Position numbers and translations under genes: made by a program. Below are positions 3,807 to 54,231 of a stretch of 64,000 nucleotides of DNA, piece by piece. Position 1 is the stretch's first letter; every line of letters starts with the position of its first letter. Below the pieces are notes generated by a model. That model was given only the letters and a program-made list of their open reading frames with translations, ran no database searches and was not told the DNA's origin. The stretch is from Bdellovibrionales bacterium (GTDB lineage: Bacteria; Bdellovibrionota_G; JALEGL01; JAGRMV01), in contig JAGRAX010000001.1 of the NCBI GenBank assembly GCA_020434365.1, positions 8,568 to 72,567 on the forward strand, given 5' to 3'.

Positions 3807-4277
3807 TTGGCGCTAATGGCCACAACTCAGGCTTATGGAGCGGATGCAAGCATCTCATACAAGATGATCAATGGGACAGAGAACACGTCGTGCAGCTATG
3901 AAGCGCAATGGATCACCGAAGACTCCGTAGATAAAAGTAATATTATCTCTAGAAATGATTTTACCGAAAAAGACTTAGGCAACTATGGGAATATTTACGC
4001 CCAAGTTATCAGAACCTACTACACTCAAAAAGGTAACTTCAAAAATCAAAGTCCAGAAAAACAAATACCGGGACAACAGTCATTTTGTGATTCATTCTCG
4101 GTTTGTGCTCTAACTTTTGTTTGTAAAAATACTGCTGAGAGCACACAAGTAGAAGTCACGATTCAAGATCACAAAGGAAAAACTTCAACCTACAACATCG
4201 ATGTTCATAAAAAAGGGGAAAAAGGGAAACCTTTCGAAGGATCTCATATAGATGGTGTAAGTGTATACGTAAAATAA
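3807..4277 (+). CDS. hypothetical small secreted protein
   Basis: 156-aa ORF with a TTG start, 7 nt after an AGGAG. It has a hydrophobic N-terminus and ends at a strong intrinsic terminator. I recognise no domain. Confidence 0.4.
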   Translation: MALMATTQAYGADASISYKMINGTENTSCSYEAQWITEDSVDKSNIISRNDFTEKDLGNYGNIYAQVIRTYYTQKGNFKNQSPEKQIPGQQSFCDSFSVCALTFVCKNTAESTQVEVTIQDHKGKTSTYNIDVHKKGEKGKPFEGSHIDGVSVYVK

Positions 4278-4298
4278 CTCTAAAAAAATACATACTTT

Positions 4299-4336
4299 AC
4301 CTCCTGGGTTTTCCAAACTCAGGAGGTTTTTTTTGT
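4299..4336 (+). terminator. rho-independent terminator
   Basis: Stem ACCTCCTG / CAGGAGGT with a 13-nt loop, followed by a run of 9 T, directly downstream of the 3807..4277 ORF. Confidence 0.8.
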
Positions 4337-4535
4337 TCGCTACATTTTTTTCATAAAGTCACAAAAGCTTATGTTTTTGAAGAATTCTGATCAATAGAGA
4401 AGAATTTTGATCTCGTAAGAATCTTGGAAATCCCCAAACATCTTTGTAGCTGATTTGAATCCAAGAAAAGGGCAGCATGTTTCTCTTTGAAAAATCTGGA
4501 TCGAACTTTATCTCTTTTGTGTCTGTGTTATATCT

Positions 4536-5096
4536 GTGACCATGTTTGCTTGGATTGTACTGGTGCAGTGGCTTGCACGTTTGATTTTTGCCCTTTTGAT
4601 TGCTCTTTCGATCTGGTCTGTTCGGATCATGTTGGAACGCAAAAAATATTTTGCTTCACTGAAGCTAGATCCTTCGAAAGACTTTGTGGAGCAAGCTGAC
4701 CAGAATGCGTTTTTCGCGCAGGCGCGTGCGTCTCTCTCCACAGCTTCAACTCCAGAATCTGTAGAACGAAAATATCAAAACCATCTTCATTTGATTTCAA
4801 AGGATCTTCAAAAAGATCTTGCAAGTTTGGGTACACTGGGAAGCATCAGTCCTTTTATAGGTCTATTGGGAACGGTGTGTGGAATCATTGCAGCTTTTGG
4901 AGATCTTTCGCAGGGAACGCAAAATACAAATCAGATGATGTTTTCTTTGGCCGAAGCGCTGCTTCTTACAGCTGTAGGTTTGGGCGTAGCCATTCCTGCT
5001 GTGGTTGCCTACAATTATTTTTCTCGTCAGGTCAAAGAAGTGCTGTCTCACCTTACTTGTCTTAAAAACGAACACCTAGAATCTATGGAAAGCTAA
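4536..5096 (+). CDS. exbB: MotA/TolQ/ExbB proton-channel protein
   Basis: 186 aa with three TM segments and the MotA/TolQ/ExbB C-terminal signature (..GLLGTVCGIIAAF..MMFSLAEALLLTAVGL..). It is followed by exbD, a tonB-like gene and a TonB-dependent receptor. Start is GTG at 4536 or ATG at 4542. Confidence 0.85.
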   Translation: MTMFAWIVLVQWLARLIFALLIALSIWSVRIMLERKKYFASLKLDPSKDFVEQADQNAFFAQARASLSTASTPESVERKYQNHLHLISKDLQKDLASLGTLGSISPFIGLLGTVCGIIAAFGDLSQGTQNTNQMMFSLAEALLLTAVGLGVAIPAVVAYNYFSRQVKEVLSHLTCLKNEHLESMES

Positions 5097-5500
5097 TGGC
5101 TTTTTCTCCTGAATCAGAAGACGGCATTTTTGACATCAACATCACGCCTTTTGTGGATGTCGTATTGGTTTTGCTCGTCATTTTTATGGTGACTGCGCCC
5201 ATGCTGGCCAAACAAGCTCTTACACTTACACTTCCCGACTCTAGCGTCTCTGACCCCATACAAGCTACAAGTCTGGGCATTTCGATTTCGGCCTCCGGTC
5301 AGTTCTCCATGTACGGTGAGCTCACTTCCGAAAAAGCCTTTGTGGAAAAAGCCGCGCAGGCCATGCAAAAAGACCCAAACACTCAAGCGATGATCGCAGC
5401 GGATGTCAACTGCGCCCATAAACATGTGATCAAAGTGATCAATCTCTTGCGCCAAGCGGGAGTTGAGCGCTACGCCTTTCAAGTCAGAGTAGAGGAGTGA
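5096..5500 (+). CDS. exbD: ExbD/TolR biopolymer transport protein
   Basis: 134 aa with one TM (ITPFVDVVLVLLVIFMVTAPM), typical of ExbD/TolR. Its start overlaps the exbB stop. Confidence 0.85.
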   Translation: MAFSPESEDGIFDINITPFVDVVLVLLVIFMVTAPMLAKQALTLTLPDSSVSDPIQATSLGISISASGQFSMYGELTSEKAFVEKAAQAMQKDPNTQAMIAADVNCAHKHVIKVINLLRQAGVERYAFQVRVEE

Positions 5501-5503
5501 TGC

Positions 5504-6169
5504 TTGCTCAGAGTTTCCAATCAAAAGCATTGGCTTGTTTCTATTTTTATTCACCTGTCATTGCTGATCATTTGCATCTTGTTGGCTTGGGTGTTTTCAA
5601 AAAATCCAGAAAAAATAGAACGTTTTGAGTTTACGATCAAAGAAGTTCCTGATTTTGAAACGGCTCCTATTGCGAAAAACATAGAAAAAAAAATGCAGCC
5701 CATCCAAAGCAGTACAAAAGAGATTGATACGAATCAAAATCAAAATGTTCCAGAAGTCTTCGGCATTCGAAAAGACTCTCTGAAAACAAGTGGCTCTTCA
5801 GGAATCCATGAAAAAGCAGGCAATACCCTAGGCAAAGATCCTGATTCGCTCATACTTGAGGATGATCGAGAACTCCCCACTCCCAAGCCGGCCTACTTGG
5901 TTTCCCAAATGCCCGTGCTCCTGGCTCAGATTGACCCTGTCTATCCAGAAGAAGCCCGAAAGAAAAATATCGAAGGGCAAGTCGTATTGAAAGTTCTCAT
6001 TGATGAAGAAGGAAAAGTTGCAAGGTCCATCATTGTAGAAGATCCTGGCTATGGTTTTGGAAAAGCTGCAAAGGAAGCCATGATGGACTATACCTTTAAA
6101 GCTGCGCGTATCGAAAATCAAAATGTAGCCGTAGAGATTCGCTATGTTGTGCGCTTTGAACTGAAGTAA
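5504..6169 (+). CDS. tonB: TonB-family energy transducer (C-terminal TonB domain)
   Basis: 221 aa with an N-terminal TM. The C-terminus (..YPEEARKKNIEGQVVLKVLIDEEGKVARSIIVEDPGYGFGKAAKEAMMDYTFKAA..) is a TonB C-terminal domain. Confidence 0.75.
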   Translation: MLRVSNQKHWLVSIFIHLSLLIICILLAWVFSKNPEKIERFEFTIKEVPDFETAPIAKNIEKKMQPIQSSTKEIDTNQNQNVPEVFGIRKDSLKTSGSSGIHEKAGNTLGKDPDSLILEDDRELPTPKPAYLVSQMPVLLAQIDPVYPEEARKKNIEGQVVLKVLIDEEGKVARSIIVEDPGYGFGKAAKEAMMDYTFKAARIENQNVAVEIRYVVRFELK

Positions 6170-6174
6170 ATGTT

Positions 6175-8433
6175 ATGAAATATTACAGCCTTCTCATATT
6201 TTTAATTGCCAGCTTACACAACCTGAGCTCTGTGACTTTTGCACAAGAAAAAATATGCTCTGTTGCATTTACGATCAAAGAAAAGGGCAGCAAAAAGAAA
6301 ATTTCCAATGCGAGCATGTTTCTCCTTCCCGAGGGCCTGGAAAAAATCTCCGATGATCAAGGACAACTGAGCTATGATCACCTAAGCTGCACAACACATG
6401 CTTGGGTCATCAATCTCACGGGCTACCTTCGAAGAGATCTTGAAATCAATGTGGAAGACTCCATGTCAAAAACCATTTTTTTGGAGGCCGCCAGCAGTAA
6501 TGAATTTGAAACCATTGTTACAGCAGATAAAAATACCCGAGATGGATCCAAAAGAAGTATTGCGCAGAAAGATTTTATCTCTGCCATTGGGAGTCGCGGG
6601 GATCCCATCATAGCCTTAGAAAATGAAGTGGGCTTTTCGGGTTTTGGCTCGCAAGGAGGTGTCGTTTTGCAAGGCGCGGATCCTGAAGATACGCGTTTTT
6701 ACATTCATGGACATGAGATTCCTCTGATTTTTCACAACCTAGGCTTTTCTTCGATTCTGATTCCCGACGTGGTGGATTCTGTGCAGCTTTACACTGCAGG
6801 GTTTGGTGCAGAGTACGGACGAAGCATCGGAGGGAACGTCAATTTGGAAACTGTCGATCCTCGAAGTGATCGCATTCATGGAATGAGCTATGTAGATTTG
6901 CTCAATGCCGCGGCATTGGTGGAGGGACCCATTGCAGATCATCACTCTTTTTGGATGGGCGGTCGAATCAGTTACATTGGTCCAATTTTTTCATTGGTAA
7001 CCATGAATGATGACAGTGTGTCTTTCAATCAGGTCCCACAATTTTTTGATCTTGAAGCTCAATACAAATGGGACATTTCAAAGAATCTACAGTTTGACCT
7101 TTTGGGCATTGGATCCAAAGACACTGTAAATGTCTTGCTTCGAAATACGGATGATCCTTATTTCAAAGGAGAACTTGGATCCACCACAGCCTTTTATCGT
7201 TTCATCCCTCGGATTCAATATACATGGAATGAGCAAAATCGATTTGAACTATCTATGGGTCTTGGAAAAGATTATGTAAAATTCTCTCTCGGAGATCAGT
7301 TTTTTGATGCCGAAATTTTTCAACCTACCTTAAGATCAGAATGGGAGCAGCATTGGAACGATCAGTGGATCTCGTATGTGGGTTTGGACTTTCAGTATCT
7401 TGACTTTCAAGCGGATGTAAATTTGCCTGCAGGATCTTTTCCCAATGCAGAGGATGAAAATGTGCCTTTGAGTTTGAGAGATGTCATTGTCAAAGAAATT
7501 GAGCAACAAGCACTGCAAGCTGGAGCATATCTGCGAGTTGATTTTTTGACTCAAGATCAGATTTGGAGATTTTCTCCCAATCTTCGTTTCGATTATTTTG
7601 GTCTCACACACAACCTACACATTCAACCAAGGCTCGAGATCGAATCTCGCATTGATAAGCATTGGCGCGCGAGGCTCTCAGGGGGATTGTACCATCAAGC
7701 TCCTCAACCTGCAGAACTGGAAAGCAGTTTTGGAAATCCAGATCTCGAAGATCCCTATGCCCTTCACTATGTTGTCAGTGCTTTGATGGATTTTAGAGAT
7801 AAAAAAGCAGAAGGTTTGTACGGAGATTTCAGCATTTTTTATAAGGACCTTTACAATCTTGTCGTAGACAGTGATGCGCTGATCACAAGAAATGGCAGCC
7901 TCGTCCCCCAAAGATATAGCAATGATGGCAGCGGCTACAGCATCGGAAATCAATGGTCACTCCGATACAATAAAGGCAGATGGTCTCATGCTTTGGCCTA
8001 TACGCTTCTTTGGTCAGAAAAATTCTCTCCCGATGAAGCGCTGTATCCATCATTAGGAGAGCAAAGACACAATGCAAATCTTCGATCGACGGTGAAGCTA
8101 GGAAACTGGTCATTGGGAGCGCGACTACGTGTCATTTCGGGTCAGCGCTATACGCCGGTGCTATCTGCAGCCTATGATGCGGACCAAGATATTTTCTTGC
8201 CTTCTTTTGGGGCGCGTAATTCTCGTCGCGGACCTTTGTTTTATCAATTGGATCTACGCCTGGATCGAAAATGGATCTATGATCAATGGATTCTTTCCTT
8301 TTATCTCGATATTCAAAATGTAACCAATCGAAATAATCCTTTCGAAGTTGAGTATAATTTTGACTACTCGGAGCAAGAGTACTCATCGGGCATTCCGATT
8401 TTGCCAACTTTTGGAATCAAAGGAGAGTTTTAA
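6175..8433 (+). CDS. TonB-dependent outer-membrane receptor with an N-terminal carboxypeptidase-regulatory-like extension
   Basis: 752 aa with a signal peptide, a plug-like region (..DPIIALENEVGFSGFGSQGGVVLQGADPEDTRFYIHG..), a long beta-barrel, and a C-terminal aromatic residue (..FGIKGEF). Confidence 0.8.
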   Translation: MKYYSLLIFLIASLHNLSSVTFAQEKICSVAFTIKEKGSKKKISNASMFLLPEGLEKISDDQGQLSYDHLSCTTHAWVINLTGYLRRDLEINVEDSMSKTIFLEAASSNEFETIVTADKNTRDGSKRSIAQKDFISAIGSRGDPIIALENEVGFSGFGSQGGVVLQGADPEDTRFYIHGHEIPLIFHNLGFSSILIPDVVDSVQLYTAGFGAEYGRSIGGNVNLETVDPRSDRIHGMSYVDLLNAAALVEGPIADHHSFWMGGRISYIGPIFSLVTMNDDSVSFNQVPQFFDLEAQYKWDISKNLQFDLLGIGSKDTVNVLLRNTDDPYFKGELGSTTAFYRFIPRIQYTWNEQNRFELSMGLGKDYVKFSLGDQFFDAEIFQPTLRSEWEQHWNDQWISYVGLDFQYLDFQADVNLPAGSFPNAEDENVPLSLRDVIVKEIEQQALQAGAYLRVDFLTQDQIWRFSPNLRFDYFGLTHNLHIQPRLEIESRIDKHWRARLSGGLYHQAPQPAELESSFGNPDLEDPYALHYVVSALMDFRDKKAEGLYGDFSIFYKDLYNLVVDSDALITRNGSLVPQRYSNDGSGYSIGNQWSLRYNKGRWSHALAYTLLWSEKFSPDEALYPSLGEQRHNANLRSTVKLGNWSLGARLRVISGQRYTPVLSAAYDADQDIFLPSFGARNSRRGPLFYQLDLRLDRKWIYDQWILSFYLDIQNVTNRNNPFEVEYNFDYSEQEYSSGIPILPTFGIKGEF

Positions 8434-9254
8434 TGAAGTCCTTAATTTTTTATTTTTTACTTTTTTGTCTTTCATCTTGCAGTGACCAGACCATTGAATA
8501 TTTTGAATTGGGAGAATTTAGATTTTTAACAGCCATTGCCAACCTACCGGAAGTCGATGGATCTGTGAGCAACATTGTAAGCATTACGCCTTACATTTCT
8601 GACATTGATGCTGGAGGCAGAACCATTGCTCTCGAAATTTATGCTTGTCCAGATCCTGGAATTTCAAATGGCCAAGAAGCTGCCTGTCAGCCTAGCCTAA
8701 GCACCACACAAAATATTTCCTATTCTTCCATTCACACTTCAAGTTTAGGAAGCAGTTTTACAGGCGCGCTGCCTTCGTTTTCAGTTTCCGTTCCGGCAGG
8801 TCTTTTGACAGGTCTTGCAGATGATGTTCGATTCAATGGGATAGATTTTATTGTCACAATGAATTTTTCTTTTGATCAGGAACATTTTTATACCTACAAA
8901 AGAATCAAAGTTTCGGAAAGGCTTTCAAAAAATACCAATCCTTCTATCAATGAAATTTTATTTTCTCAGAGCGCAAGCAAAGCCTTAGAAGACAAAGATG
9001 AGCTTTCGATTACCACAAGCGGAAATGCCGAAGAAAGTTATGAAATTGCCAAACCCAATACAAACGACAAAGAAACTCTGGAGGAAGAAGCTTTCGTGAC
9101 TTGGTTTACCTACCAAGGAACATCTGCCTTTTCTCGAACTTTTGTAGATGAAGGCACAAGCTTCGAACTTGGAAAAGAGGGAGATATCTCCAAAGCTTTT
9201 GTTGCCGCCATTCTCAGAGATGGCCGAGGCGGCGCAAGTTTTGCGATTCGTTAG
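8433..9254 (+). CDS. lipoprotein co-transcribed with the TonB-dependent receptor
   Basis: 273 aa with lipobox LSSC after an N-terminal hydrophobic segment. Its ATG overlaps the receptor stop (TAATG). No domain recognised. Confidence 0.5.
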   Translation: MKSLIFYFLLFCLSSCSDQTIEYFELGEFRFLTAIANLPEVDGSVSNIVSITPYISDIDAGGRTIALEIYACPDPGISNGQEAACQPSLSTTQNISYSSIHTSSLGSSFTGALPSFSVSVPAGLLTGLADDVRFNGIDFIVTMNFSFDQEHFYTYKRIKVSERLSKNTNPSINEILFSQSASKALEDKDELSITTSGNAEESYEIAKPNTNDKETLEEEAFVTWFTYQGTSAFSRTFVDEGTSFELGKEGDISKAFVAAILRDGRGGASFAIR

Positions 9255-9262: not shown

Positions 9263-10102
9263 CTATAAAAAATTTTTGCTTTTGAGAGGCTTTTTTCTAG
9301 TTTCAGCAATGGTATCCAGCATCACTCGATGAAGTTTTTTGTTACTGGCTACAATTTGCCTGTTCCAAAAGTCTTTGATTTTTTTTCCCTCATAGTCTGT
9401 GACTTTTCCTCCCGCTTCTTCCACAAGTAGAATCCCCGCAGCCACATCCCAGGGATGAAGTCCCGGTTCCCAAAAGCCATCAAAGCGTCCACATGCAACT
9501 TGTGCCAAGTCTGTTGCTGCAGATCCCGGCCTACGCACGCATCTGGAACGAAGTTCAAAACGAACAAAAGCGGCCATGTTGTTTTCGTCGCTCTCTTTTC
9601 GATCATAGGGAAAACCCGTAGCCAGTAAGGCTTGAGAGAGTTTTTTTGTGGAAGAGACGGAAATTTTTTCTCCATTGCAGTATGCGCCTTTCCCAGACAC
9701 AGCTGTGTACGTTTCTTTCCACAAAGGATGTGCGATGACACCAAAGAGAATTTTTCCCTTGGATACAAAGGCAATGGAGACCGCAAATACCGGAAAGCCA
9801 TGCGCAAAGTTTGTGGTTCCATCAATGGGATCGATGATCCATACCTCACCTTTGCGTGGATCTACGCTGTGATCACTTTCTTCGGCCAAAATCTGATGCA
9901 AAGGAAAATGCTGCCTAATGATTTTTTTGATGGCCGCCTCGCTGGCCAAATCTGCGGTCGTAACCAAGTCGCTCTCGCCTTTCATTGATGTGACGAAATC
10001 CCTTTGTTTGTAATGTTTTCGAATGATGGCGCAGGCTTTTTGAGCCGCAAGTTTTCCTACGGTTTCTATATTTTCAAGATCAATCTTTGAAGTATGTTTC
10101 AT
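9263..10102 (-). CDS. suhB: inositol monophosphatase family protein (SuhB-like)
   Basis: 279 aa with the IMPase motifs ..WIIDPIDGTTNFAHG.. and ..WDVAAG... Confidence 0.85.
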   Translation of the reverse strand: MKHTSKIDLENIETVGKLAAQKACAIIRKHYKQRDFVTSMKGESDLVTTADLASEAAIKKIIRQHFPLHQILAEESDHSVDPRKGEVWIIDPIDGTTNFAHGFPVFAVSIAFVSKGKILFGVIAHPLWKETYTAVSGKGAYCNGEKISVSSTKKLSQALLATGFPYDRKESDENNMAAFVRFELRSRCVRRPGSAATDLAQVACGRFDGFWEPGLHPWDVAAGILLVEEAGGKVTDYEGKKIKDFWNRQIVASNKKLHRVMLDTIAETRKKPLKSKNFL

Positions 10103-10247
10103 GGTCTATTGTGCTTTCTATGCTTATGAGGCCATTTCTGAGTCATTTTTCAGCAAGAGGAACCTGTTTTTTCTCTTAGTGTAAACTTTTGATTCCATTT
10201 TTTTTGCCGCTTTTTTTTAACTAGTGAATATCATTAAAGCAATGCGC

Positions 10248-10262
10248 TGGCACTGCTTTTGC
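10248..10262 (+). promoter_or_regulatory. sigma-54 (RpoN) -24/-12 promoter
   Basis: TGGCACtgcttTTGCT has an exact GG-N10-GC spacing, a perfect -24 TGGCAC and a TTGCT -12 element. It lies ~320 nt upstream of a sigma-54 activator gene. Confidence 0.55.
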
Positions 10263-10437
10263 TAAGTATATGGGCATGAAACAAAGATCAAAAGAAAATC
10301 GAAGGATGGGAAGAATGATCCCTGATCTTATGGATCGCTAACAAAGGCCTGCAGCACTTGGGTCTTTTCTCTCAAGACTCAAGTTGAGGCCAAGGCCCTC
10401 ACAAGAGGGATTATGGTTACCACAACAACGCAAGTAA

Positions 10438-10472
10438 AAGCCTGAATCGCTACCCTGATTCGGGCTTTTTTC
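10438..10472 (+). terminator. intrinsic terminator or attenuator hairpin
   Basis: 11-bp stem AAGCCTGAATC / GATTCGGGCTT (one G-U wobble) with an 8-nt loop, followed by TTTTTTC. It sits ~175 nt downstream of the sigma-54 promoter and ~100 nt upstream of the activator start. Confidence 0.5.
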
Positions 10473-10501
10473 TTTGACTGCCGAAATAATGCACAAATCG
10501 C

Positions 10502-10531
10502 TTGGTTTTTGCGCACAACATCGCGTAAAAT
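10502..10531 (+). promoter_or_regulatory. candidate sigma-70 promoter for the activator gene
   Basis: -35 TTGGTT, an 18-nt spacer and -10 TAAAAT, ending ~48 nt upstream of the ATG at 10579. Confidence 0.35.
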
Positions 10532-10578
10532 AGTAGTCATCCCACCCATTTTTGAGCAGAAAGTAGGCAAACTACAGC

Positions 10579-12417
10579 ATGGAATATGAAAAAACCCAAC
10601 CGCAGTTCATGGACAAAATTGATGACGAAAAATCCGTCCCTCTTGAAAAATCCTATTTGGTCGCTATGACCGGTCCCCAAGCCGGTACTGTATTCACACT
10701 ATCTGATGGGTCCATGATTGTGGGAAGACAACCGACTGCAGATATTTTTCTTAATGATCATCAGGTCTCTCGAAATCATGCCGAATTTGTCACCAGCATG
10801 GGAGAAACGCAGGTCCATGATCTGGGCTCAACCAATGGAACCTTTCTCAATGGAGAAAAACTAGAAAAAAAAGTGGCGATCTCTGATGGAGATGAAGTTC
10901 AGCTGGGCGCAACTTGTTTTCGATTTTCGATTCACAACCCCATCGATGGAAATCGACTGGGCCTGAGCAATCACGGATATTTTGAAACGCGTTTGCACGA
11001 AGAACTCGATCGAGCCTCTAGGTACAAACGAGATCTGTCTGTGCTCATGATCAGTCCTGCCATCGATCCCAAAGAAATTTTAGACAAAGCCAAACTCCTC
11101 TCGGACCACTACCCTGACGTCGTTGAAAAAATTCGAGGCATCATTCGCACCATGGATTTGCTCGCGCACTATGGAAAATATGAATTGGAACTTCTTCTGC
11201 CAGAAACATCGAAAAAAGATGCGTTAATTCTAGCAGAAAGAATCTTGGCCGATGCTACTTTTGGAAAAGATGAAAACCTTTCCATTGGAATGGCTTCTTT
11301 TCCGGAAGATGGGCGCACTCCTGACATCCTTTTAGAGCGATCTCGATTGGCTTTGAAAAAAGCTCGAACGGAGAAAAAAACCAAACCCGTTGTAGACTTG
11401 GCAGAAGAAAGACATCGTCTCATTCTTTCCAATGAAAAAGAAGTCATCGTTCGAAGCGAAAAAATGAAGGAGCTTTTTGATGTTATCGAGCGCATCGCCA
11501 AATCTACCATCACCGTTTTAATTCAAGGGGAGACAGGCGTTGGAAAAGAGGTTGTCGCTGAAACCATTCACACCAAAAGTGATCGCTCTAAAGATCCATT
11601 GGTTTGTGTCAACTGCGCGGCGCTTACGGAAACGCTTCTAGAAAGCGAACTTTTTGGACATGAAAAAGGATCTTTCACTGGCGCAGATCAAACCAAAATT
11701 GGTCTTTTCGAAAGTGCCAATGGTGGAACCATTTTTTTGGATGAGATTGGAGAAATGCCGCTAAAAACTCAGGCCAAACTTCTTCGCGTACTTCAAGCCA
11801 AGAAAATCATGCGCGTGGGATCAAACAAAGAAATTAACACCGATGTGCGTATCATTGCTGCCACTAATAGAAAGCTCGAAAAGCAAGTAGAGGAGAAGAA
11901 TTTTCGCGAAGACTTATTCTATCGACTCAATGCCGCTACGCTCACCATACCTCCACTACGAGAAAGGAAAAAAGAGGTTCCCTATCTCGTACAAACTTTT
12001 ATCAAAGAATGCTGTGAAGAAAACGGCATCGACAACAAGGACATTTCACCCGATGCCCTAGATATTTTGATGAAATACTCCTGGCCTGGAAACATTCGAG
12101 AACTACGAAATACCGTAGAGCGCGCCGTTGTCATTTCTGAAGGTGAGACCATTTATAAAGAAGCCTTGACCAGCAGACTCACCTCTGATGTAGATCAGAT
12201 CACTTCTTCTTCTTCGATCGACAATCTAGATGCGGCCGTAGACTCTACCATGGTCGGAGACATGAAAGAGGTCATCGCCGCATACGAAAGAGATCTGATC
12301 ATCAACGCCCTGAAGAAAACGCAGTGGAATCAAACGAAGGCCTCAGAAATTTTAAATGTTCCCAGAAGAACACTGGTCTCAAAAATCAAAAAGTACAAAA
12401 TCAAAGAGGATGAATAG
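10579..12417 (+). CDS. sigma-54-dependent transcriptional activator with an N-terminal FHA domain and a degenerate GGDEF-like domain
   Basis: 612-aa ORF. FHA motifs are ..GRQPTADIFLNDHQVSRNHAEF..GSTNGTFLNGEKL... The GGDEF-like fold reads ..RYKRDLSVLMISPAID..IRTMDLLAHYGKYELELLLPETS... The AAA+ sigma-54 interaction motifs are VLIQGETGVGKE, ESELFGHEKGSFTGA and GGTIFLDEIGEM, and a C-terminal Fis-type HTH is NVPRRTLVSKIKKY. Confidence 0.85.
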   Translation: MEYEKTQPQFMDKIDDEKSVPLEKSYLVAMTGPQAGTVFTLSDGSMIVGRQPTADIFLNDHQVSRNHAEFVTSMGETQVHDLGSTNGTFLNGEKLEKKVAISDGDEVQLGATCFRFSIHNPIDGNRLGLSNHGYFETRLHEELDRASRYKRDLSVLMISPAIDPKEILDKAKLLSDHYPDVVEKIRGIIRTMDLLAHYGKYELELLLPETSKKDALILAERILADATFGKDENLSIGMASFPEDGRTPDILLERSRLALKKARTEKKTKPVVDLAEERHRLILSNEKEVIVRSEKMKELFDVIERIAKSTITVLIQGETGVGKEVVAETIHTKSDRSKDPLVCVNCAALTETLLESELFGHEKGSFTGADQTKIGLFESANGGTIFLDEIGEMPLKTQAKLLRVLQAKKIMRVGSNKEINTDVRIIAATNRKLEKQVEEKNFREDLFYRLNAATLTIPPLRERKKEVPYLVQTFIKECCEENGIDNKDISPDALDILMKYSWPGNIRELRNTVERAVVISEGETIYKEALTSRLTSDVDQITSSSSIDNLDAAVDSTMVGDMKEVIAAYERDLIINALKKTQWNQTKASEILNVPRRTLVSKIKKYKIKEDE

Positions 12418-12429: not shown

Positions 12430-13038
12430 ATGAAAAAAATTGTTCCGCAAAAAAATCTGCACGAGTTTTTTTATCAGGAAATTCAATCCATCTTGGCTCA
12501 AGAACCTGACTCTATTGATCCTGCCGCAAGTTTTTATTTGGTCAATCTTCTCTCCACCATCTATCAAAAAAATGAAACGCAGCAATCTGTCATCAATTTT
12601 TTTGATGAACCCTTGGCCTTACTCCTAGCCCGAGCACATCACAGCAATGATCCAGAAGAAAGATTTACGCTCTTAAAGCATTTGGGAGATCGAGCATTAT
12701 ATATTTCTGGATTTTTTGGGGACAGTCTCGGACAAAGTGCGGTGGATCTTGACTATTATATGGCCATGGGTGGGACGGCCTATCGATCTCTTTCTTCCAT
12801 TTCCAAAGAAAAACCCCGACAAAAAAATCTGTCAGAGCTTTTTCAAAGTCTTGCCGCACATTTTGCGCAGCTTGTAGACATCATCTCACAAATCAGCGAA
12901 GCTTCGGGGATTACAAAAAATGAAGACCTCCTTAGACTTTATGAGAGATGGATTCACACCAAGAGTTCTAGACTTTTGCAAAAACTCAAAGATCAAGGCA
13001 TTGATCCACTAGAGCAACATAAAAAAATTCTTCACTAA
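12430..13038 (+). CDS. hypothetical protein
   Basis: 202-aa ORF 12 nt downstream of the activator gene, with a GGAGGATAG SD-like sequence just before it. No recognisable domain. Confidence 0.5.
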   Translation: MKKIVPQKNLHEFFYQEIQSILAQEPDSIDPAASFYLVNLLSTIYQKNETQQSVINFFDEPLALLLARAHHSNDPEERFTLLKHLGDRALYISGFFGDSLGQSAVDLDYYMAMGGTAYRSLSSISKEKPRQKNLSELFQSLAAHFAQLVDIISQISEASGITKNEDLLRLYERWIHTKSSRLLQKLKDQGIDPLEQHKKILH

Positions 13039-13046: not shown

Positions 13047-13697
13047 ATGTTGGGGCATTTTTTACATAAACGTCTTGAGTTGATTTATGGAGCTAGCAGT
13101 TCGTTGCGACTACACGATTTTATTCTTCCTCTCAAAGAGAATCAGGTATCAACAGTTTTTATGATAAGAAAAAAAACTGATGTATCCATCGCCGTCGGCC
13201 TGAAACCTCAAATTTTGGAACTCGCAAAGAGCAAGCAGATCTCTCATAGTTCTATGGAAAATTTTTGGGAACTGGTGGAAGAAATTTCTCATTTTACATA
13301 TTTGACTTTTTGTCTACGGATACAGAAACCCATAAGTCTTTTGGATATGGAAATGCAGGGAGAAATCGACAAGTATGTACTCACACAAGATTTGTTTGAT
13401 ACCGATCACACGCTCTACACAAAACTGTTTCACCAGTATTCATTGAGATCGCATTTAAATCCCGAAGAAAAGCAGCGCTACCATACCGCCAATCGATTGG
13501 GGGCAAAATTTATACGAAGTCTGACTCAGAAGAAATACGGACGTTTTTTTTGGTCTGAAGGGCTTTTGCGTAGGTTTAGAGATTTTTATCGAAGAGCATC
13601 TTTCGAAAAATGTCGTTGGGTTGAATCAAAGTTAAGCTTTTATTCCCGCAAGGAAATGGAGAAAATCTTTGCGCAATCAATGAGATCATGTAGGTAA
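13047..13697 (+). CDS. hypothetical protein
   Basis: 216-aa ORF tightly linked to the flanking genes on the same strand. No domain recognised. Confidence 0.5.
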   Translation: MLGHFLHKRLELIYGASSSLRLHDFILPLKENQVSTVFMIRKKTDVSIAVGLKPQILELAKSKQISHSSMENFWELVEEISHFTYLTFCLRIQKPISLLDMEMQGEIDKYVLTQDLFDTDHTLYTKLFHQYSLRSHLNPEEKQRYHTANRLGAKFIRSLTQKKYGRFFWSEGLLRRFRDFYRRASFEKCRWVESKLSFYSRKEMEKIFAQSMRSCR

Positions 13698-13707: not shown

Positions 13708-14052
13708 ATGAGCAAAGAACAAAGATCCGTAAAAAGAGTCCCTTTACAAATCAAAGTTGATTATAAATCCGAAGGTAATTTTCTTTTTGAAAATGCTACC
13801 AACATCAGTGAACACGGGATTTTTATCGAAACGGATCAACCTTTGGACCCCGGAACCGTTCTTCAACTTCAGTTTACCTTGCCTGAAACACGCAAGACAC
13901 TCAAGGTCATGGGTAAAGTCAAATGGATCAACCCTTTCCGAGAAAATGCCCAGGAGAATTACAATCCAGGCATGGGTGTGCAGTTTGAAAGTTTGGGAGA
14001 AGTAGATCGAGAAATTCTTCTCAATGCAATCAAACGCATTGCCGTATTATAA
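13708..14052 (+). CDS. PilZ-domain protein (single-domain c-di-GMP receptor candidate)
   Basis: 114 aa carrying an RxxxR motif (RSVKR) and an NxSxxG motif (NISEHG). It is a paralog of the ORFs at 15979 and 27610. Confidence 0.75.
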   Translation: MSKEQRSVKRVPLQIKVDYKSEGNFLFENATNISEHGIFIETDQPLDPGTVLQLQFTLPETRKTLKVMGKVKWINPFRENAQENYNPGMGVQFESLGEVDREILLNAIKRIAVL

Positions 14053-15978: not shown

Positions 15979-16323
15979 ATGATAGAAAAACGTAAATACC
16001 CCCGGATTGAAGCCAAAATCAAAGTGAGCTTTCATAGCAAAGAAGAGCTCTCACTTGAATACACCAGAAACATCAGTGCAGGAGGGATTTTTCTCAAAAC
16101 TGATAAATTGCTCGACCCCAACTCAGAAATTGAACTGACCTTGGACTTACCGGAAAAACAGGGCGAAGTTCAAATCAAAGGAAAGGTGATGAGAGTCATG
16201 AGCATGAGTCATCCAGTGGATCCCGAAAAAATGGTCTACGGTGTGGGGGTCCGTTTCATCAACTTAACTCCAGAAATTTCTGAAAAAATTGAAACCTGCT
16301 TACAAAAACTAAGCGGCTCATAG
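15979..16323 (+). CDS. PilZ-domain protein
   Basis: 114 aa with RxxxR (RKYPR) and NxSxxG (NISAGG) motifs intact. Confidence 0.8.
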   Translation: MIEKRKYPRIEAKIKVSFHSKEELSLEYTRNISAGGIFLKTDKLLDPNSEIELTLDLPEKQGEVQIKGKVMRVMSMSHPVDPEKMVYGVGVRFINLTPEISEKIETCLQKLSGS

Positions 16324-27609: not shown

Positions 27610-27954
27610 TTACTCTTTTTTTAATTTTTTGTACTTTCTGAAAAGCTTTGAAATGATCTGTTTGCCAGCATCATTGAGCTCCATAAACTGAATGCCCATG
27701 CCTTTTCTTTTGCTGGGGTCTTTTTCAACCCACTTTACAATTCCGGTACCTTGGATGCTCTCTTCTTGGTTTTTGACGCGAAACTCAAAATTAAGCTTGG
27801 TCCCTATGGGTTTTGGACTGTTTGTGACCAGGAACAATCCGCCTTCACTTAAATTTTCTAGGAGAACTTGATCCCGTTGATCTTCTTGCGCGAAAAGAAT
27901 CTTTACGTTGCTCTCTAAAAAAATACGGGCAAATTTACGGCGTTCATCAGACAT
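27610..27954 (-). CDS. PilZ-domain protein
   Basis: 114 aa with RxxxR (RKFAR) and NxSxxG (NLSEGG) motifs. Confidence 0.8.
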   Translation of the reverse strand: MSDERRKFARIFLESNVKILFAQEDQRDQVLLENLSEGGLFLVTNSPKPIGTKLNFEFRVKNQEESIQGTGIVKWVEKDPSKRKGMGIQFMELNDAGKQIISKLFRKYKKLKKE

Positions 27955-48544: not shown

Positions 48545-49480
48545 CTAGTTTCGAAGTTTATCAAAAAAACCTTGCAGCTCCGATCGCGAAAAATAGCTGA
48601 TCGTGATCTCACCCTTTTCATGGGTTTTGGGTTTGATTTGTACTTTGGTTCCCAATTGTCTTTGTAAATTTTCTTGAAAGTTTCGAAGAAACACATCCAA
48701 ATCCGAAGTGCTTTGAGTTTTTTTACTCTTGCGGTTGGGGTTTGCAATTTCGTTTTTTACAAGATTTTCAATCTGCCTCACAGAGAGATCTTCTGCGATG
48801 CTTCTTTGGGCTAAGCGTGTTTGTTTGTTGGGATCTGAACTTGCAAGCAGCGCACGTGCATGCCCCATGCTCAATTGTTTTTCGCTTACAAGTTTTTGAA
48901 CAGAGTTGGGAAGTTTGAGCAAGCGAAGCATATTGGTCACCGTGCTTCGATTTTTTCCTGCTTTTTGTGCGAGTTCTTCATGACTCAAAGAAAACTCTTT
49001 TTGAAGGCGCTGATAGGCAAGAGCTTCTTCGATGGGATCCAAATCTTCCCGTTGTAAATTTTCAATGAGCGCGATTTCCAATTGTTCTTGGTCTGTGCTG
49101 GAACGAACAATGACGGGAACATTTGTAAGTCCGAGTTTTTTGCAAGCTCGAAGTCTTCGCTCACCCGCAATGAGTTCATAGTGAATGCCCACACGTCTGG
49201 CAACCAAAGGCTGAATGACTCCATGCTCTTTGATGGAGGCAACCAGATCTTCCAGGGCTTCATCCCGAAAATATTTTCGAGGTTGGCGTGGATTGACTTG
49301 GATGTCCTGAATTAAAACATCTCGAACAAGCGCGCTGGTTTCAAAATTTTTTTCTTCCGTAACACTATTTTTGCTCACTGTAGATGCGTTTGTAGAAACT
49401 GCACTTTGAGCCTTTTCATCAAAGGATTTTTTTTGAGGAATCAGTGAAGAGAGTCCTCTTCCGAGTCTTTTTTCTTTCAT
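48545..49480 (-). CDS. parB: chromosome partitioning protein ParB
   Basis: 311 aa with ParB box motifs (..GERRLRACKKLGL..) and an HTH. It is downstream of parA. Confidence 0.9.
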   Translation of the reverse strand: MKEKRLGRGLSSLIPQKKSFDEKAQSAVSTNASTVSKNSVTEEKNFETSALVRDVLIQDIQVNPRQPRKYFRDEALEDLVASIKEHGVIQPLVARRVGIHYELIAGERRLRACKKLGLTNVPVIVRSSTDQEQLEIALIENLQREDLDPIEEALAYQRLQKEFSLSHEELAQKAGKNRSTVTNMLRLLKLPNSVQKLVSEKQLSMGHARALLASSDPNKQTRLAQRSIAEDLSVRQIENLVKNEIANPNRKSKKTQSTSDLDVFLRNFQENLQRQLGTKVQIKPKTHEKGEITISYFSRSELQGFFDKLRN

Positions 49481-49483
49481 TGC

Positions 49484-50317
49484 TTACAGCCTTTCTATGT
49501 TTGCAGGTTCTGAGTTTGTTTGCAGTTCTTGCAGGGGCGCTTGTTGTTTTTGTTTTTGTCGGTCAAAAAACTCTTTGGCGAGAGCCAGATAGTTTTGCGC
49601 ACCACTACTGCGAATGTCATACATCAAAATAGGTTTTCCAAAACTCGGTGCTTCACTTACGCGTACATTTCTTGGAATTTTTGTTCGATACAAAATCCGT
49701 CCGAAATGATTTTTGACTTCGAGTTCTACCTGATGACAGAGAGAATTTCGTTTGTCGAACATGGTCAGAAGTATGCCTTCCAATCGAAGTTTGGCATTGA
49801 GGTTTTCTCGGACGAGATCAATGGTTTGAACCAACCGACTCAAACCCTCTAAGGCGTAATACTCCGCTTGCAGGGGAACAATCACTTGGTCTGCGCAGCT
49901 CAAGGCGTTGACTGTGAGTAGGCCCAATGATGGTGGGCAGTCAATAAGAATGTAGTCGTACTGCTCGCTCACCTGCTGCAAAAGTTTTTTGAGTTGGTAT
50001 TCCCTCTCGGGCAAATCTACAGCTTCGATTTCAAAACCAATCAAATCTGGTGTCGTAGGCATGACATCCAAAAAAGGTGTGTCCGTTTTTTTAATGATCT
50101 GCTCTGCACTGCTCTGTCCAATCAATCCGTCATATAGCAGATGCTCTTGACCTGCGGTCACACCTACGCCGCTGCTTGTATTGGCTTGTGGATCTAAATC
50201 AACCAAAAGAACTTTTTTTTCTTGAACCGCAATAGAGGCTCCCAGGTTGATGGTGGAGGTGGTTTTACCCACACCACCTTTTTGATTGGACATGGCGATG
50301 ATTGTAGCTTTGCTCAT
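49484..50317 (-). CDS. parA: chromosome partitioning ATPase ParA (Soj)
   Basis: 277 aa with a deviant Walker A KGGVGKTT. Its start overlaps the mnmG stop. Confidence 0.9.
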
Positions 50318-52197
50318 GAATTCTCCTTGATGGATTGGCTTTGGAATTTCTTTACGTACATAGAAACAATACTCACAGCTGCGGGCGTAACACCGGAAAT
50401 TCTAGAGGCCTGTCCCAGTGTGTGAGGTCTGATGCGTGAGAGTTTTTCTCGAACTTCTGTGGAAAGACTTGGAAGCTGAGCATAGTCAAAAGTTTTTGGA
50501 ATCACCGTGTGCTGCTCTTTTTCACTTCTGGAAATGTCTTGCTGCTCGCGCGAGATATATCCCTCATATTTGCAAGCAATGTGAAGGTTTTCAATGTAGT
50601 CATGCTGCTCTTTTTCCAACTGTGGTGCCAAAACTTGTAAATGTTTCCACTCCACTTCCGGCCTTTTGAGAAAGTCCCACAAACTGTTGGGACTCTTGAG
50701 CGGTGTCAAACCCATCTGCGTGATTTTTTCGTTGGTTGCGGGTGTGGGTGTAAGTCGAAGGCTTTGAAGTTTTTGTTTGCTGTGCTCGATGAGGTGGTTT
50801 TTTTCCTTAAACTTTTGATAACTCCACTCCTCAACCGTTCCAAGAGCATAGCCTTTTTCTAGCAGTCTTTGATCTGCATTGTCTTCCCTTAAGTGCAGGC
50901 GATGCTCTGCCCGTGAGGTAAACATGCGATATGGCTCCGTCGTCCCTTTGGTTACAAGATCATCGACCAAAACGCCGATGTAGCTTTCTGACCTAGACAG
51001 CACAAAGGGTTCAAAGTTTTTGTCTAGAGACTTTGCAGCATTCACACCTGCAAGCCAGCCTTGAGCTGCGGCTTCTTCATAACCTGTGGTTCCATTGATC
51101 TGCCCTGCATGAAAAAGTCCCGGAATTTTTTTCACCTCAAGCCACGGCGAAAGTTCGGTAGGATCAATATAGTCATATTCAACGGCATAGCCCGGGCGCA
51201 TCACTTCAACCTTTTCCAGGCCTTTCATACTACGGAGAAACTCCACCTGTGTTGCCAAAGGCAAGGAATTGGACAGGCCGTTGGGATAGATTTCTGCTGT
51301 TTCTAGGCCCTCAGGTTCTAAAAACACTTGATGTGCGTCTTTGTCAGCAAATCGAACAATCTTGTCCTCAATGCAGGGGCAGTAGCGGGGACCGACACTT
51401 TGGATTTTTCCGCTATACATGGCAGATTGTGAAAGTTTGGATTGGATGATTTGATGAGTCCGAGCATTGGTATAGGTCACATGGCAGGGAAGCTGCTTTT
51501 GACGAGTAGGTGTTCGGAAAAAAGAAAACTGTGGCGTGGGCTCGTCCCCAGGTTGCTCTTCTAAGATATTGAAATTAATAGTTTTTTTATCAAGTCTGGG
51601 CACGGTTCCTGTTTTCATCCGCCCTCTGCGAAGCCCCACACCCAAAAGAGTTTCACTCAAAGACTTCGAGGCCTTGTCGCCAGAGCGACCTCCGGACAGA
51701 CTCAAAGCTCCGATATGCATCAGACCATTGAGAAAGGTTCCGGTTGTCAAAATGACGGCCCCCGCTCTGAGCTCTTCACCAAAGTGAGTGACAACACCCA
51801 CACATCGACCTTGATCCAAGATAAGGTCCTCTACCATAGCCTCTCGGCATACAATAGAAGAGTGAGATTCAATGATACTTTTGGTTTTTCGTGCGTAGAG
51901 ATCTTTGTCAGCCTGCGCCCGCGTTGCCCAAACCGCTGGGCCTTTGCGTGTATTCAGGGTTCGAAATTGTATACCTGTTTCATCAATAGCCCAGGCCATC
52001 ACTCCACCCAAGGCCTCGACTTCTTTTACCAAGTGTGACTTTCCCAAACCCCCAATTGCCGGATTGCAGGACATATGCCCAATTCGATCTAAATTACTGG
52101 AAACCAAAGCTACTTTTGCTCCCATTTGAGCCGCGGCCCAGGACGCTTCGATCCCGGCATGACCTCCTCCAACAACAATGACATCAAAAGTGTTCAT
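50314..52197 (-). CDS. mnmG: tRNA uridine-5-carboxymethylaminomethyl modification enzyme MnmG (GidA)
   Basis: 627 aa with an FAD-binding N-terminus [14 protein letters not shown] and conserved MnmG blocks throughout. Confidence 0.95.
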
Positions 52198-52198
52198 G

Positions 52199-52921
52199 TT
52201 ACCGTCTCACCAAGCTTTCAGTTTCATAATAACGATTGGCCACAGAGACATTGGGATACACAAGACAAGCTGGGGCCATCAGCACACCGGGGTTTAAAAC
52301 GCTGTTACATCCTGTTTGACAGCCGTCACCTATAATGGCGCCCATTTTTCTCAAGCCTGACTCTATGTCATCCCCTTGAATTCGAAGCTTGACTTCTCCA
52401 TCCGTAATTTTCAAGTTCGAAACTTTCGTACCCGCTCCCAAATTGACCTCATTGCCAAGAATGCTGTCCCCAACATAGGCAAAGTGCGCGGCCTTAGCGC
52501 CGTTACAAAAAATAGAACTTTTCACCTCTGTCGCATGACCAATCACACAGTGTTCTCCTGCAATCAAACCTCCCCGGATATAGGCTGATTGGCGAATCTG
52601 ACTGTGAGGACCTATAATACTGGGTCCCTGAATGTAGGCTCCAGGCTCAACGGTCACACCTTCTCCAAGCTCAACCTCTCCCTCAAAGTAAGCTCCAGCT
52701 TTAATATAGACCTTTCCTCCCCCTCTGGACCTTAATTCTGTATCTTCTAAAATCAGTCCCTGTGGAGTGTTCGGTGAAATTTGACTTTCAATCCACTCTT
52801 CTTTTACTCCCTTTGACAAAATATCCCAGGCAAATTCTAGATCTTGAAAAAGATCACGAAACCACAAAAGCTTTGTGTCGACATAGTGATCAATATTATA
52901 TGTTTCACGTGAAACATTCAT
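52199..52921 (-). CDS. hexapeptide-repeat (left-handed beta-helix) protein, probable acyl/nucleotidyl-transferase-like
   Basis: 240 aa with repeated [LIV]G..x..x hexads through the central region. It lies 1 nt upstream of mnmG, and its first codons contain an 18-bp palindrome. Confidence 0.5.
52900..52917. promoter_or_regulatory. perfect 18-bp palindrome ATGTTTCACGTGAAACAT (copy 1)
   Basis: 9+9 perfect inverted repeat overlapping the start codon region of the 52199..52921 gene. An identical core occurs at 53064..53083. Confidence 0.5.
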
Positions 52922-53063
52922 GGCTGGAAACTATACCTTCTTTTCTTCCTCAAGTGGAGCAGAAAAACTCTTCAATGAATGAATTTTTCGTTTTCGAAAT
53001 AATTTTATAGTAATCCTATAAAATCGATCACATTCTATAAATAAAAGTGGTTAAAAAATCTGT

Positions 53064-53083
53064 CATGTTTCACGTGAAACATG
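53064..53083. promoter_or_regulatory. perfect 20-bp palindrome CATGTTTCACGTGAAACATG (copy 2)
   Basis: Starts 15 nt downstream of the dnaN stop. It shares the core of copy 1 with one extra base pair on each side. Confidence 0.5.
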
Positions 53084-53097
53084 GAACTACTTTATCT

Positions 53098-54222
53098 TCA
53101 GACACGCATAGGCATAATGACACCAAAATAGCTTGGGTCATCAGGAATTCGAACTACCCCAGGGCTTTGCTCGTGGTTAAACTCAAAAACAACTTTGTCT
53201 CCTTGACTTGCGCTCAAGGCATCCAAAACATATTTGGCGTTAAAACCAATATTGAGTTCTCCCCCATCAAACTCGCCAAAAATTTCTTCCTCTGCTTCTC
53301 CCAACTCTGGTGAGTTGGCTCGAAGTAATACTCCCTGTCCATGGATTCCAAATTTTACACATTTGGATTTTCCTTCTGAAAGAAGCGAAACTCTACGTAA
53401 ACTCTGATAAAAAGATTCTTTTTCCAAGGTAAGTTTTTTGTTGTTGTTTTTAGGGATGACAGCTGTGTAATCTGGAAACTCTCCTACAACCAGTCTCATA
53501 AAAAGTTTAGTGTCTTTAACTTTACATACGGCATTACCTTGACTCACAGCAAAATCTATCTCATTTTCTTTGGCATCCGAAAGAAGTTTTTTCAATTCAA
53601 AAACACCTTTTCTGGGTAATATAACACTCTTATCAAGGTTAAAATTCTCATTTTCATCTAAGTCTTTGTTATAAAAAGCTAAACGGTGTCCATCTGTCGC
53701 AACCATTCTAAATATTTTTTTTCCATTACCTAACGTTTCTGTTTCTATAAGCGAGCCGTTGAGATTATATCTCATCTCATCAGTACAAATGGCAAAAGAG
53801 GTTCGATCAATGGCATACTTGAGTGTGTTGGTTTGCAGACGAGAAAATTCTATATCTGAAGACGAGGGCATCTTTGGAAATTCACTGCCATCTACGCCTG
53901 CGATTTTAAATTGGGCCTTGCCACTGTGAATTGTAATCCAAGATTGATCGCTGGATACAAGTTCGCCCTGCTCTGCAGGAAGTTCCTTAATAATGCTTAT
54001 AAAATAACTCGAAGGAACGCAGATCCGTCCCGGCTCTTCAACTTTAGCTTCGATCTGAGTTTGAATTCCTATTTCTAAGTCTGTGGCTTGAATCAAAAGA
54101 CATTGGTCTTTGGCTTGAATTAAAATATTTCCCAAAATGGGCATTGTAGTTTTTTTCTCAGCTACGCTGGAGACACGACTCAATGCTTTAAGAAAAGGAA
54201 CTTTATCAAACTGAACTTTCAT
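53098..54222 (-). CDS. dnaN: DNA polymerase III beta sliding clamp
   Basis: MKVQFDKVPFLKALSRVSS...TMPILGNILIQ.. aligns with the E. coli DnaN N-terminus, and the C-terminus is ..VIMPMRV. The track ORF starts 3 codons upstream at 54231. Confidence 0.9.
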   Translation of the reverse strand: MKVQFDKVPFLKALSRVSSVAEKKTTMPILGNILIQAKDQCLLIQATDLEIGIQTQIEAKVEEPGRICVPSSYFISIIKELPAEQGELVSSDQSWITIHSGKAQFKIAGVDGSEFPKMPSSSDIEFSRLQTNTLKYAIDRTSFAICTDEMRYNLNGSLIETETLGNGKKIFRMVATDGHRLAFYNKDLDENENFNLDKSVILPRKGVFELKKLLSDAKENEIDFAVSQGNAVCKVKDTKLFMRLVVGEFPDYTAVIPKNNNKKLTLEKESFYQSLRRVSLLSEGKSKCVKFGIHGQGVLLRANSPELGEAEEEIFGEFDGGELNIGFNAKYVLDALSASQGDKVVFEFNHEQSPGVVRIPDDPSYFGVIMPMRV

Positions 54223-54231
54223 TACACACAC

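Follow-up and report, generated by a model that had tools for sequence, protein, structure and literature searches.

Which transcript would a sigma-54 promoter produce in an intergenic spacer where the gene behind it faces away and the gene ahead has a promoter of its own? This question is raised by a 64-kb stretch of DNA from an uncultured Bdellovibrio-like bacterium, referred to here over its whole length as the window, in which a gene of the inositol-monophosphatase (IMPase) family and a gene for a sigma-54 activator, or enhancer-binding protein, stand divergently on either side of a 476-nt spacer. Within this spacer, a consensus sigma-54 promoter is followed in the same orientation by an intrinsic terminator, and an initial annotation had taken the two as the ends of a ~200-nt transcript that would serve either as a small RNA or as a leader through which the terminator controls the activator gene. 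Judging from the sequence and its comparison with a close relative, we consider it likely that the segment 10139..10475 is a self-contained, sigma-54-transcribed gene for a non-coding RNA of ~200 nt that acts in trans. The features of the locus on which the argument draws are as follows.

9263..10102, minus strand: IMPase gene, the divergent neighbor upstream of the RNA module
10139..10165, plus strand: upstream block 1 (TGAGTCATTTTTCAGCAAGAGGAACCT), a candidate enhancer (upstream activating sequence, UAS) spanning about -135 to -109 relative to the predicted start
10178..10197, plus strand: upstream block 2 (AGTGTAAACTTTTGATTC), a second candidate site for the activator or for an architectural protein
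10198..10233, plus strand: two T8 tracts, then TTTAACTA and AATATCA, with T-tracts at matching places in the close relative
10248..10263, plus strand: sigma-54 promoter (-24 TGGCAC, 5-nt spacer, -12 TTGCT; TGGCACtgcttTTGCT), an exact consensus match
10270..10336, plus strand: conserved A/G-rich 5′ segment (ATGGGCATGAAACAAA ... TCGAAGGAWGGGAAGAAT ... TGGATC), a candidate seed or protein-binding region
10272..10475, plus strand: predicted small RNA of ~200 nt, its start placed at the GGG of 10272-10274 and its end in the T-run
10346..10409, plus strand: variable central hairpins of the predicted fold, a long stem-loop (10346-10392) and a short one (10396-10409)
10422..10429, plus strand: conserved single-stranded linker ACAACAAC before the terminator, identical in the close relative (at 2824)
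10436..10475, plus strand: intrinsic terminator (AAAAGCCUGAAUCG, loop, UGAUUCGGGCUUUU, then a U-run), from a terminator scan and folding
10502..10531, plus strand: the activator's own sigma-70-type promoter, TTGGTT-18 nt-TAAAAT, matching 8/12 consensus positions
10579..12417, plus strand: enhancer-binding protein gene (FHA, degenerate GGDEF, sigma-54 AAA+ and Fis-type helix-turn-helix [HTH] domains, from Pfam)

Promoter, terminator and conserved sequence in the spacer

Over both of its strands, the window has a single zero-mismatch match to TGGCAC-N5-TTGCW, the promoter TGGCACtgcttTTGCT. Dinucleotide shuffles give an expectation of 0.08 exact matches by chance, with at least one in 8 of 100 shuffles, and the four matches with one mismatch (at 20795, 45815, 47734 and 50615) each fall within a long open reading frame (ORF). 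The exact site is intergenic and points towards the terminator, and its GG (-24) and GC (-12) are separated by exactly 10 nt. The match and spacing first claimed for it stand, while its end, initially given as 10262, moves to 10263, as the element is 16 nt long (10248..10263). A single close relative was found, the locus L163, whose activator is 88% identical to that of the window and whose IMPase-activator spacer, 486 nt in length, carries the same promoter-RNA-terminator module. Its promoter, TGGCATcagaaTTGCT, lies at the homologous place with the same spacing. Ten of the 11 specified bases are kept, the one difference being C to T at the sixth base, and none of the five spacer bases is (0/5). 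Across four genes shared by the two genomes, four-fold degenerate sites are 32-42% identical (35% overall), and neutral sites are therefore saturated between them; in the spacer, sequence outside the selected elements shows 25-36% identity.

The terminator is also shared. The hairpin called by the scan in the window (10436..10469) has 14 pairs, including A-U and G-U pairs, and a 6-nt loop, with TTTTTTCTTT running on to 10475; folded in isolation, the hairpin has an energy of -19.2 kcal/mol (z = -4.7). The 11-bp stem first described at 10438..10472 corresponds to the G+C core of this hairpin. In L163 the terminator has a 14-bp stem followed by U9 (z = -7.8). The base of the stem is identical in the two genomes, and its top has changed on both arms with pairing kept (AUC/GAU versus GAG/CUC). 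Loss of the -24/-12 element and the hairpin from related genomes had been named at the outset as grounds for giving up the transcript; both are kept in L163, the only relative with this spacer. As the upstream gene is divergent, there is no plus-strand gene upstream that the terminator could serve, and any transcript that ends there therefore begins inside the spacer. A role for the hairpin on the minus strand was rejected, as there is no convergent gene and the tail would make a poor U-run when read from the minus strand. Directly after its terminator, L163 contains a 28-nt insertion (2872-2899) with a hairpin of its own (ATCGTCCC ... GGGACGAT), which is absent from the window.

Upstream of the promoter, block 1 is identical to L163 at 22 of 28 aligned columns, versus 36% and 25% in its flanks, and block 2 at 17 of 20. 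Four sequences hold fixed distances from the -24 element in both genomes: the start of block 1 (TGAGTCAT...) at 109 nt in the window and 110 nt in L163, TGTAAACTTTTG, which belongs to block 2, at 68 nt, TTTAACTA at 32 nt and AATATCA at 21 nt. The distance from block 1 to the IMPase start codon is 37 nt in the window and 59 nt in L163. We infer that block 1 is a UAS for the activator, and within the region 10139-10197 both TGAGTCAT...TCAGCA and GTGTAAACTTTTG are candidate sites for the activator's HTH domain. The T-tract region, which separates the enhancer from the promoter, is probably bent or bendable, as sigma-54 promoters in general suggest.

Downstream of the promoter, conservation resumes at 10270, which is 22 nt past the T of the -24 element and 7 nt past the -12 element in both genomes; the GGG taken as the start lies 10-12 nt past the GC of the -12 element. 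Over 10270-10322, 45 of 55 columns (82%) are identical, with P ~1e-12 at p = 0.35, the identity of the four-fold sites. This 5′ segment is predicted to be unstructured in L163 (empty centroid, z = +2.0) and weakly structured in the window (z = -1.95). The central segment (10343-10420) folds at -31.4 kcal/mol (z = -3.6), with 27% of its columns identical to L163, whose hairpins are shorter and different. Farther on, the ACAACAAC linker is unpaired in the predicted folds of both genomes. The fold of 10274..10475 as a whole has an energy of -64.9 kcal/mol (z = -4.0). The combination of a conserved, accessible 5′ part (82%) and a variable middle (27%), here in two sequences, is one that marks small RNAs, and the unit is delimited by its own promoter and Rho-independent terminator at a length within the 50-400 nt typical of them. 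Collectively, the pattern in the window and L163 agrees with an RNA whose 5′ third is functional and which is transcribed from a sigma-54 promoter with an upstream enhancer region, and the selective conservation at saturated divergence supports the small-RNA reading of the ~200-nt transcript first proposed.

The RNA has no recognizable counterpart among described families in the searches made. At gathering thresholds, Rfam matched no family anywhere in the 64-kb window, neither a c-di-GMP riboswitch nor a known small RNA, and over 10100-10600, with E values up to 10, it returned terminator-driven noise only, the best of it being Thr_leader at 20.5 bits (threshold 55) and RAGATH-25 at 18.7 bits (threshold 49). 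An nhmmer profile of the 5′ segment run against the window and 174 loci found no paralog, recovering its source sequences only, and motif searches agree.

The wider comparison set was assembled largely protein by protein. Collection scans, in which the N-terminal half of the activator was aligned against genome and metagenome contigs, gave one useful orthologous locus, L083, as their matches were dominated by the generic FHA motif STNGT[FI][VL]NG. In eight more distant orthologous loci, with activators 60-72% identical, the spacers measure just 26-206 nt and the module is absent. Moreover, a scan of the orthologous loci for GG-N10-GC with at most two mismatches placed a site in the IMPase-activator spacer of the window and L163 only. 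The gene order activator, two genes of unknown function, PilZ is kept in all orthologous loci (for the downstream side, all but L083 were covered), and the IMPase gene lies upstream in all of them except L083, in which a PALP-ACT gene is directly upstream. Two genomes have the module and eight syntenic lineages clearly lack it, which makes it lineage-specific; by this comparison, it appears to be a recent addition of ~300 bp to a conserved IMPase / activator / two unknown / PilZ locus.

Possible action of the RNA and alternative readings

In the model that we favor, an enhancer-binding protein would bind the conserved blocks 70-135 bp before the start, and this protein would most likely be the FHA/degenerate-GGDEF activator encoded 100 bp downstream. 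The T-tract spacer would then let the activator touch the closed complex at TGGCAC-N5-TTGCT, whereupon ATP hydrolysis would open the promoter and transcription would start at ~10272-10274, to be halted by the hairpin and U-run at 10436..10475. The RNA would act in trans, most likely through base-pairing of its conserved 5′ segment with mRNAs, titration of an RNA-binding protein being the less likely mode. The activator gene would be transcribed separately, from the sigma-70-type promoter at 10502..10531. The activator encoded next to the RNA suggests that the organism has a sigma-54 system. Two local sequence matches were rejected, each absent in L163 and at chance level: an 11/12 complementarity of RNA positions 10358-10369 to activator codons 4-7 (10588-10599), and a 15/18 resemblance of the RNA 5′ end at 10275-10292 (CAUGAAACAAAGAUCAAA) to the first 18 nt of the IMPase mRNA (10086-10103).

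Several points weigh against this model. The element is carried by two genomes alone, and covariation amounts to a few terminator pairs, which limits the support for the central domain. The upstream blocks could partly serve the promoter of the divergent IMPase gene. Transcription of the unit and its dependence on RpoN are both predictions from sequence, and the activator is presumed to be the cognate regulator of the RNA promoter from the adjacency of the two; near the activator orthologs, no other sigma-54 promoter with at most two mismatches occurs in any intergenic region. As for the cofactors, no rpoN, hfq or csrA gene lies within the 64-kb window. Searches for targets were likewise negative: when RNAduplex was used to match the 5′ segment to translation-start regions in the window, 57 in all, the best value was -39.1 kcal/mol in a shuffle range of -31 to -41, and no complementary 7-mer common to both genomes was found at six orthologous genes.

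The transcript might be mainly a 5′ leader of the activator mRNA, with the terminator serving as a regulated attenuator that places the gene under RpoN feedback, which was the alternative offered by the initial annotation, and it is true that the RNA and the activator gene are co-oriented and 104 nt apart. However, both genomes have a strong terminator (14 bp and a U-run; z = -4.7 in the window and -7.8 in L163), no conserved antiterminator pairing is seen in the alignment, in which the pre-terminator segment is the least conserved (27%), and L163 has its extra 28-nt insertion between the terminator and the activator promoter; an independent small-RNA gene is therefore favored. In addition, the activator has a separate promoter past the terminator, an element that holds the same place in all ten lineages examined, and eight orthologous lineages carry the activator gene without any such leader. 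A promoter between terminator and gene, a leader absent in eight lineages and an unconserved pre-terminator segment are all at odds with an attenuation leader, and the glmY locus of Proteus, with no terminator and no internal promoter, is the opposite of the window. Read-through coupling is thus a minority possibility, and one we regard as quite unlikely, although some read-through is possible. Protein titration concerns the mode of action of the same sigma-54 transcript, which would sequester a CsrA/RsmA- or Hfq/Crc-type protein in place of base-pairing; CrcZ and RsmY/Z-type RNAs act by protein sequestration. Both genomes keep GGA-containing motifs (AAGGAW, GGGAAG, UGGAUC and GGGAU) as well as the A/CA-rich stretches GAAACAAA and ACAACAAC, and the conserved 5′ part is rich in purines, an uncommon trait in a sequence that would pair with Shine-Dalgarno sequences. 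Yet the GGA motifs number four in 200 nt against ~2.6 expected from base composition by our own estimate, so there is no enrichment, and the predicted folds do not show them in repeated hairpin loops. We judge this mode to be unlikely.

The sigma-54 site and the upstream blocks might also be non-productive, working at the DNA level as regulatory sequence for the IMPase or activator gene, for example through an inactive holoenzyme that acts as a roadblock, with the hairpin incidental. Many Salmonella sigma-54 binding sites drive no obvious gene, and the IMPase promoter must fall within 10103-10250. Control of the divergent gene leaves unexplained, however, why conservation runs 55-65 nt past the predicted start and appears again at ACAACAAC and the terminator; the upstream blocks hold their spacing to the -24 element and not to the IMPase start codon, and both genomes keep a canonical terminator with no plus-strand gene upstream. 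These features make a DNA-level element very unlikely. Finally, the predicted RNA contains one plus-strand ORF of at least 20 codons, the 23-codon ORF MGMKQRSKENRRMGRMIPDLMDR at 10270..10341, which could be translated either as such or from the second ATG, at 10276, to yield a small protein. An ATG-initiated ORF is present in both genomes, with its first five residues (MGMKQ) in common. However, the conserved 5′ segment contains a 2-nt indel that shifts the reading beyond codon 6 and puts TCGAAGGAWGGGAAGAAT in different frames, so that the 23-codon ORF is not coding: the peptides are wholly different from there on (MGMKQRSKENRRMGRMIPDLMDR, 23 residues, in the window and MGMKQTFKMKLEGREE, 16 residues, in L163), whereas nucleotide conservation runs on across the frame shift. 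The ORF was originally described as lacking a Shine-Dalgarno sequence, and indeed no GGAGG-like sequence precedes it; the transcript is predicted to begin no earlier than its first ATG. No ORF on either strand is conserved in frame between the window and L163, the minus-strand ORFs diverging after six residues that derive from the conserved activator 5′ untranslated region (UTR). A small-protein gene is scarcely credible on this evidence, and a sigma-54-dependent, trans-acting RNA remains the reading that we prefer.

The activator gene and its surroundings

The gene downstream of the RNA encodes, as first annotated, a sigma-54 activator: it matches Pfam Sigma54_activat at E = 5e-73 over a complete domain with a GSFTGA loop, has no receiver domain and does not reach the cut-off of any named NCBIfam equivalog. 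It belongs to an ortholog family found in Bdellovibrionota metagenome-assembled genomes (MAGs) at 49-100% identity; the identical protein is annotated in a Bdellovibrionales MAG and is also present on metagenome contigs. For a sigma-54 activator, it is unusual to combine an N-terminal FHA domain with a degenerate GGDEF domain and to lack a receiver. The GGDEF domain (residues 128-267) has GKYEL in place of GGDEF/GGEEF, and five residues upstream of GKYEL stands an invariant RxxD (R190-T-M-D193), as in I-site c-di-GMP receptors, the region of interest being residues 190-203.

The sigma-70-like promoter that had been noted between the terminator and the activator gene is found as TTGGTT-18-TAAAAT at 10502..10531 and has an equivalent in the relatives. 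The window's copy falls just under the threshold of the scan tool, which calls the equivalent promoter in L164 (TTGGCG-18-TATCAT) and L173 (TTGGCG-18-TATGAT), and the pattern (T/A)TGG(C/T)(G/T)-18 nt-TAnnnT occurs at the equivalent place in L163, L164, L165, L170, L172, L173, L174 and L083. From its conservation before the activator in relatives, it follows that this promoter is ancestral and that the sigma-54 module is an addition on its upstream side. Two further blocks are kept between the window (10480-10499 and 10553-10569) and L163, namely TGCCGAAAWAATGCACAA, just before the activator promoter, and TGAGCAGAAAGTAGGCA, within the activator's 5′ UTR; TGCACAA is also found in L164.

In seven lineages, a 16-bp palindrome, TGGCGAAAWWTYGCCA, overlaps the -35 element and spacer of the activator promoter in an operator-like position, at the following sites.

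L083, 2416-2431: TGGCGAAAWWTYGCCA
L164, 2948-2963: TGGCGAAAWWTYGCCA
L165, 2907-2922: TGGCGAAAWWTYGCCA
L170, 1425-1440: TGGCGAAAWWTYGCCA
L172, 1502-1517: TGGCGAAAWWTYGCCA
L173, 1463-1478: TGGCGAAAWWTYGCCA
L174, 1445-1460: TGGCGAAAWWTYGCCA

The palindrome is missing from the window (equivalent position ~10502-10520) and from L163, the two carriers of the module. It was considered and rejected as a degenerate sigma-54 promoter, since its GG and GC lie 9 nt apart in most lineages and 10 nt apart in only two, and since it is a palindrome that coincides with the sigma-70-type -35 element and spacer. In L172 it falls inside an annotated N-terminal extension of the activator (P0016, 636 aa); the annotated start (within 1501-1580) is probably too far upstream, the conserved start MENDKTLPKF lying downstream. 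A speculative scenario, which we hold to be doubtful, would link these observations: the birth of the RNA gene would have placed post-transcriptional control under an activator that senses phospho-threonine through its FHA domain and possibly c-di-GMP through the RxxD I-site, and its insertion would have coincided with the loss of TGGCGAAAWWTYGCCA, so that feedback was rewired from a DNA operator to an RNA. If this were true, a sigma-54 small RNA would be tied to c-di-GMP and Ser/Thr-kinase signaling in Bdellovibrionota, for which we know of no earlier example.

Downstream of the activator, the genes at 12430-13038 and 13047-13697 are conserved between it and PilZ in all loci with gene calls, and neither has a Pfam or NCBIfam match. 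The PilZ gene that ends this conserved cluster (13708-14052) matches TIGR02266 and is the first of three single-domain PilZ genes within 15 kb, the others being at 15979-16323 and 27610-27954. On the other side, the block between the PALP-ACT and IMPase genes (3807-9254) is absent from L163 and the other relatives and is thus a window-specific insertion; it contains a 156-aa ORF (3807-4277), ExbB, ExbD and TonB genes, a 752-aa ORF and a 273-aa ORF, and none of these three ORFs has a Pfam match. Elsewhere, the window includes a replication-origin neighborhood (48545-61597) with parB, parA, gidA/mnmG, dnaN and dnaA on the minus strand, followed, after a gap without a long ORF (55827-57321), by yidC, a KH/R3H protein gene and mnmE. 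The small-RNA locus lies ~45 kb from dnaA.

Relation to known sigma-54-dependent small RNAs

The element is a further example of a known layout, a sigma-54 small RNA beside an activator gene, and not a new kind of system. Quorum sensing, envelope synthesis, carbon catabolite control and development are governed by sigma-54 small RNAs such as Qrr, GlmY/GlmZ, CrcZ, NrsZ and Pxr, which serve as their central switches, and to our knowledge the well-studied examples all come from Gammaproteobacteria or Myxococcota. If our reading is true, the design in which a small RNA lies beside an activator gene and is transcribed independently of it would extend to an uncultured lineage of Bdellovibrionota, where the FHA domain and the degenerate GGDEF domain with its I-site would point to signals from Ser/Thr kinases or c-di-GMP and not from a histidine kinase. 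With two carriers and eight syntenic non-carriers, the locus would also offer a tidy case of a small-RNA gene arising in a pre-existing intergenic region. No concept is changed by this; the value of the element is that of an annotated, testable candidate, and it would be greater if the link to the FHA/GGDEF activator holds.

Among the sigma-54 small RNAs, which depend on an enhancer-binding protein for activation and are often encoded beside an activator gene, are those of Qrr/LuxO in Vibrio and of CrcZ/CbrB and NrsZ/NtrC in Pseudomonas. LuxO and CbrB have been described as sigma-54 activators that turn on small RNAs. The window RNA has no homology to these Rfam families. Qrr RNAs are ~100 nt long and Hfq-dependent with a known seed, and CrcZ is ~400 nt long with repeated CA motifs; neither pattern is reproduced in the window RNA. 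A closer parallel in setting is Pxr of Myxococcus, whose gene, pxr, has a predicted sigma-54 promoter and is intergenic, adjoining the NtrC-like activator gene nla19 (PMC5568312). Like the window RNA, Pxr is a multi-stem-loop RNA of narrow phylogenetic range, and its own 5′ stems are conserved and its 3′ stem is variable (PMC5568312, PMC5684412). However, Pxr is ~108 nt long and lies downstream of its activator gene, whereas the window RNA is ~200 nt long and lies upstream; there is no Rfam-level similarity between them, and the conserved part is single-stranded in the window RNA and consists of stems in Pxr.

The GlmY-GlrK/GlrR (QseE/QseF) system of Enterobacteriaceae provides the other parallel, and here the differences lie in the parts. 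GlmY and the window RNA share neither sequence nor structure, no GlmY_tke1 or GlmZ model scoring up to E = 10; GlrR has a receiver domain and a partner kinase in place of FHA and degenerate GGDEF inputs; the window has no evident overlapping sigma-70 promoter, and no TGTC-N10-GACA sites were seen; the host belongs to another phylum; and only two genomes carry the module. The arrangement, in contrast, is alike: in both, a sigma-54 small RNA of ~150-200 nt has activator genes immediately downstream in the same orientation. Two forms of the glmY locus have been described. In Proteus mirabilis, glmY has neither a terminator nor a separate glrK/glrR promoter, and the genes are co-transcribed (PMC3045617, PMC8745638). 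In E. coli, glmY is sigma-54-dependent and ends at a Rho-independent terminator (PMC8745638), and GlrK/GlrR are encoded just downstream and independently transcribed, with GlrR binding >100 bp upstream of glmY (PMC3045617). The locus in the window, with its predicted RNA ended by a terminator, an activator gene under its own promoter and candidate activator sites >100 bp upstream, matches the E. coli type of this arrangement.

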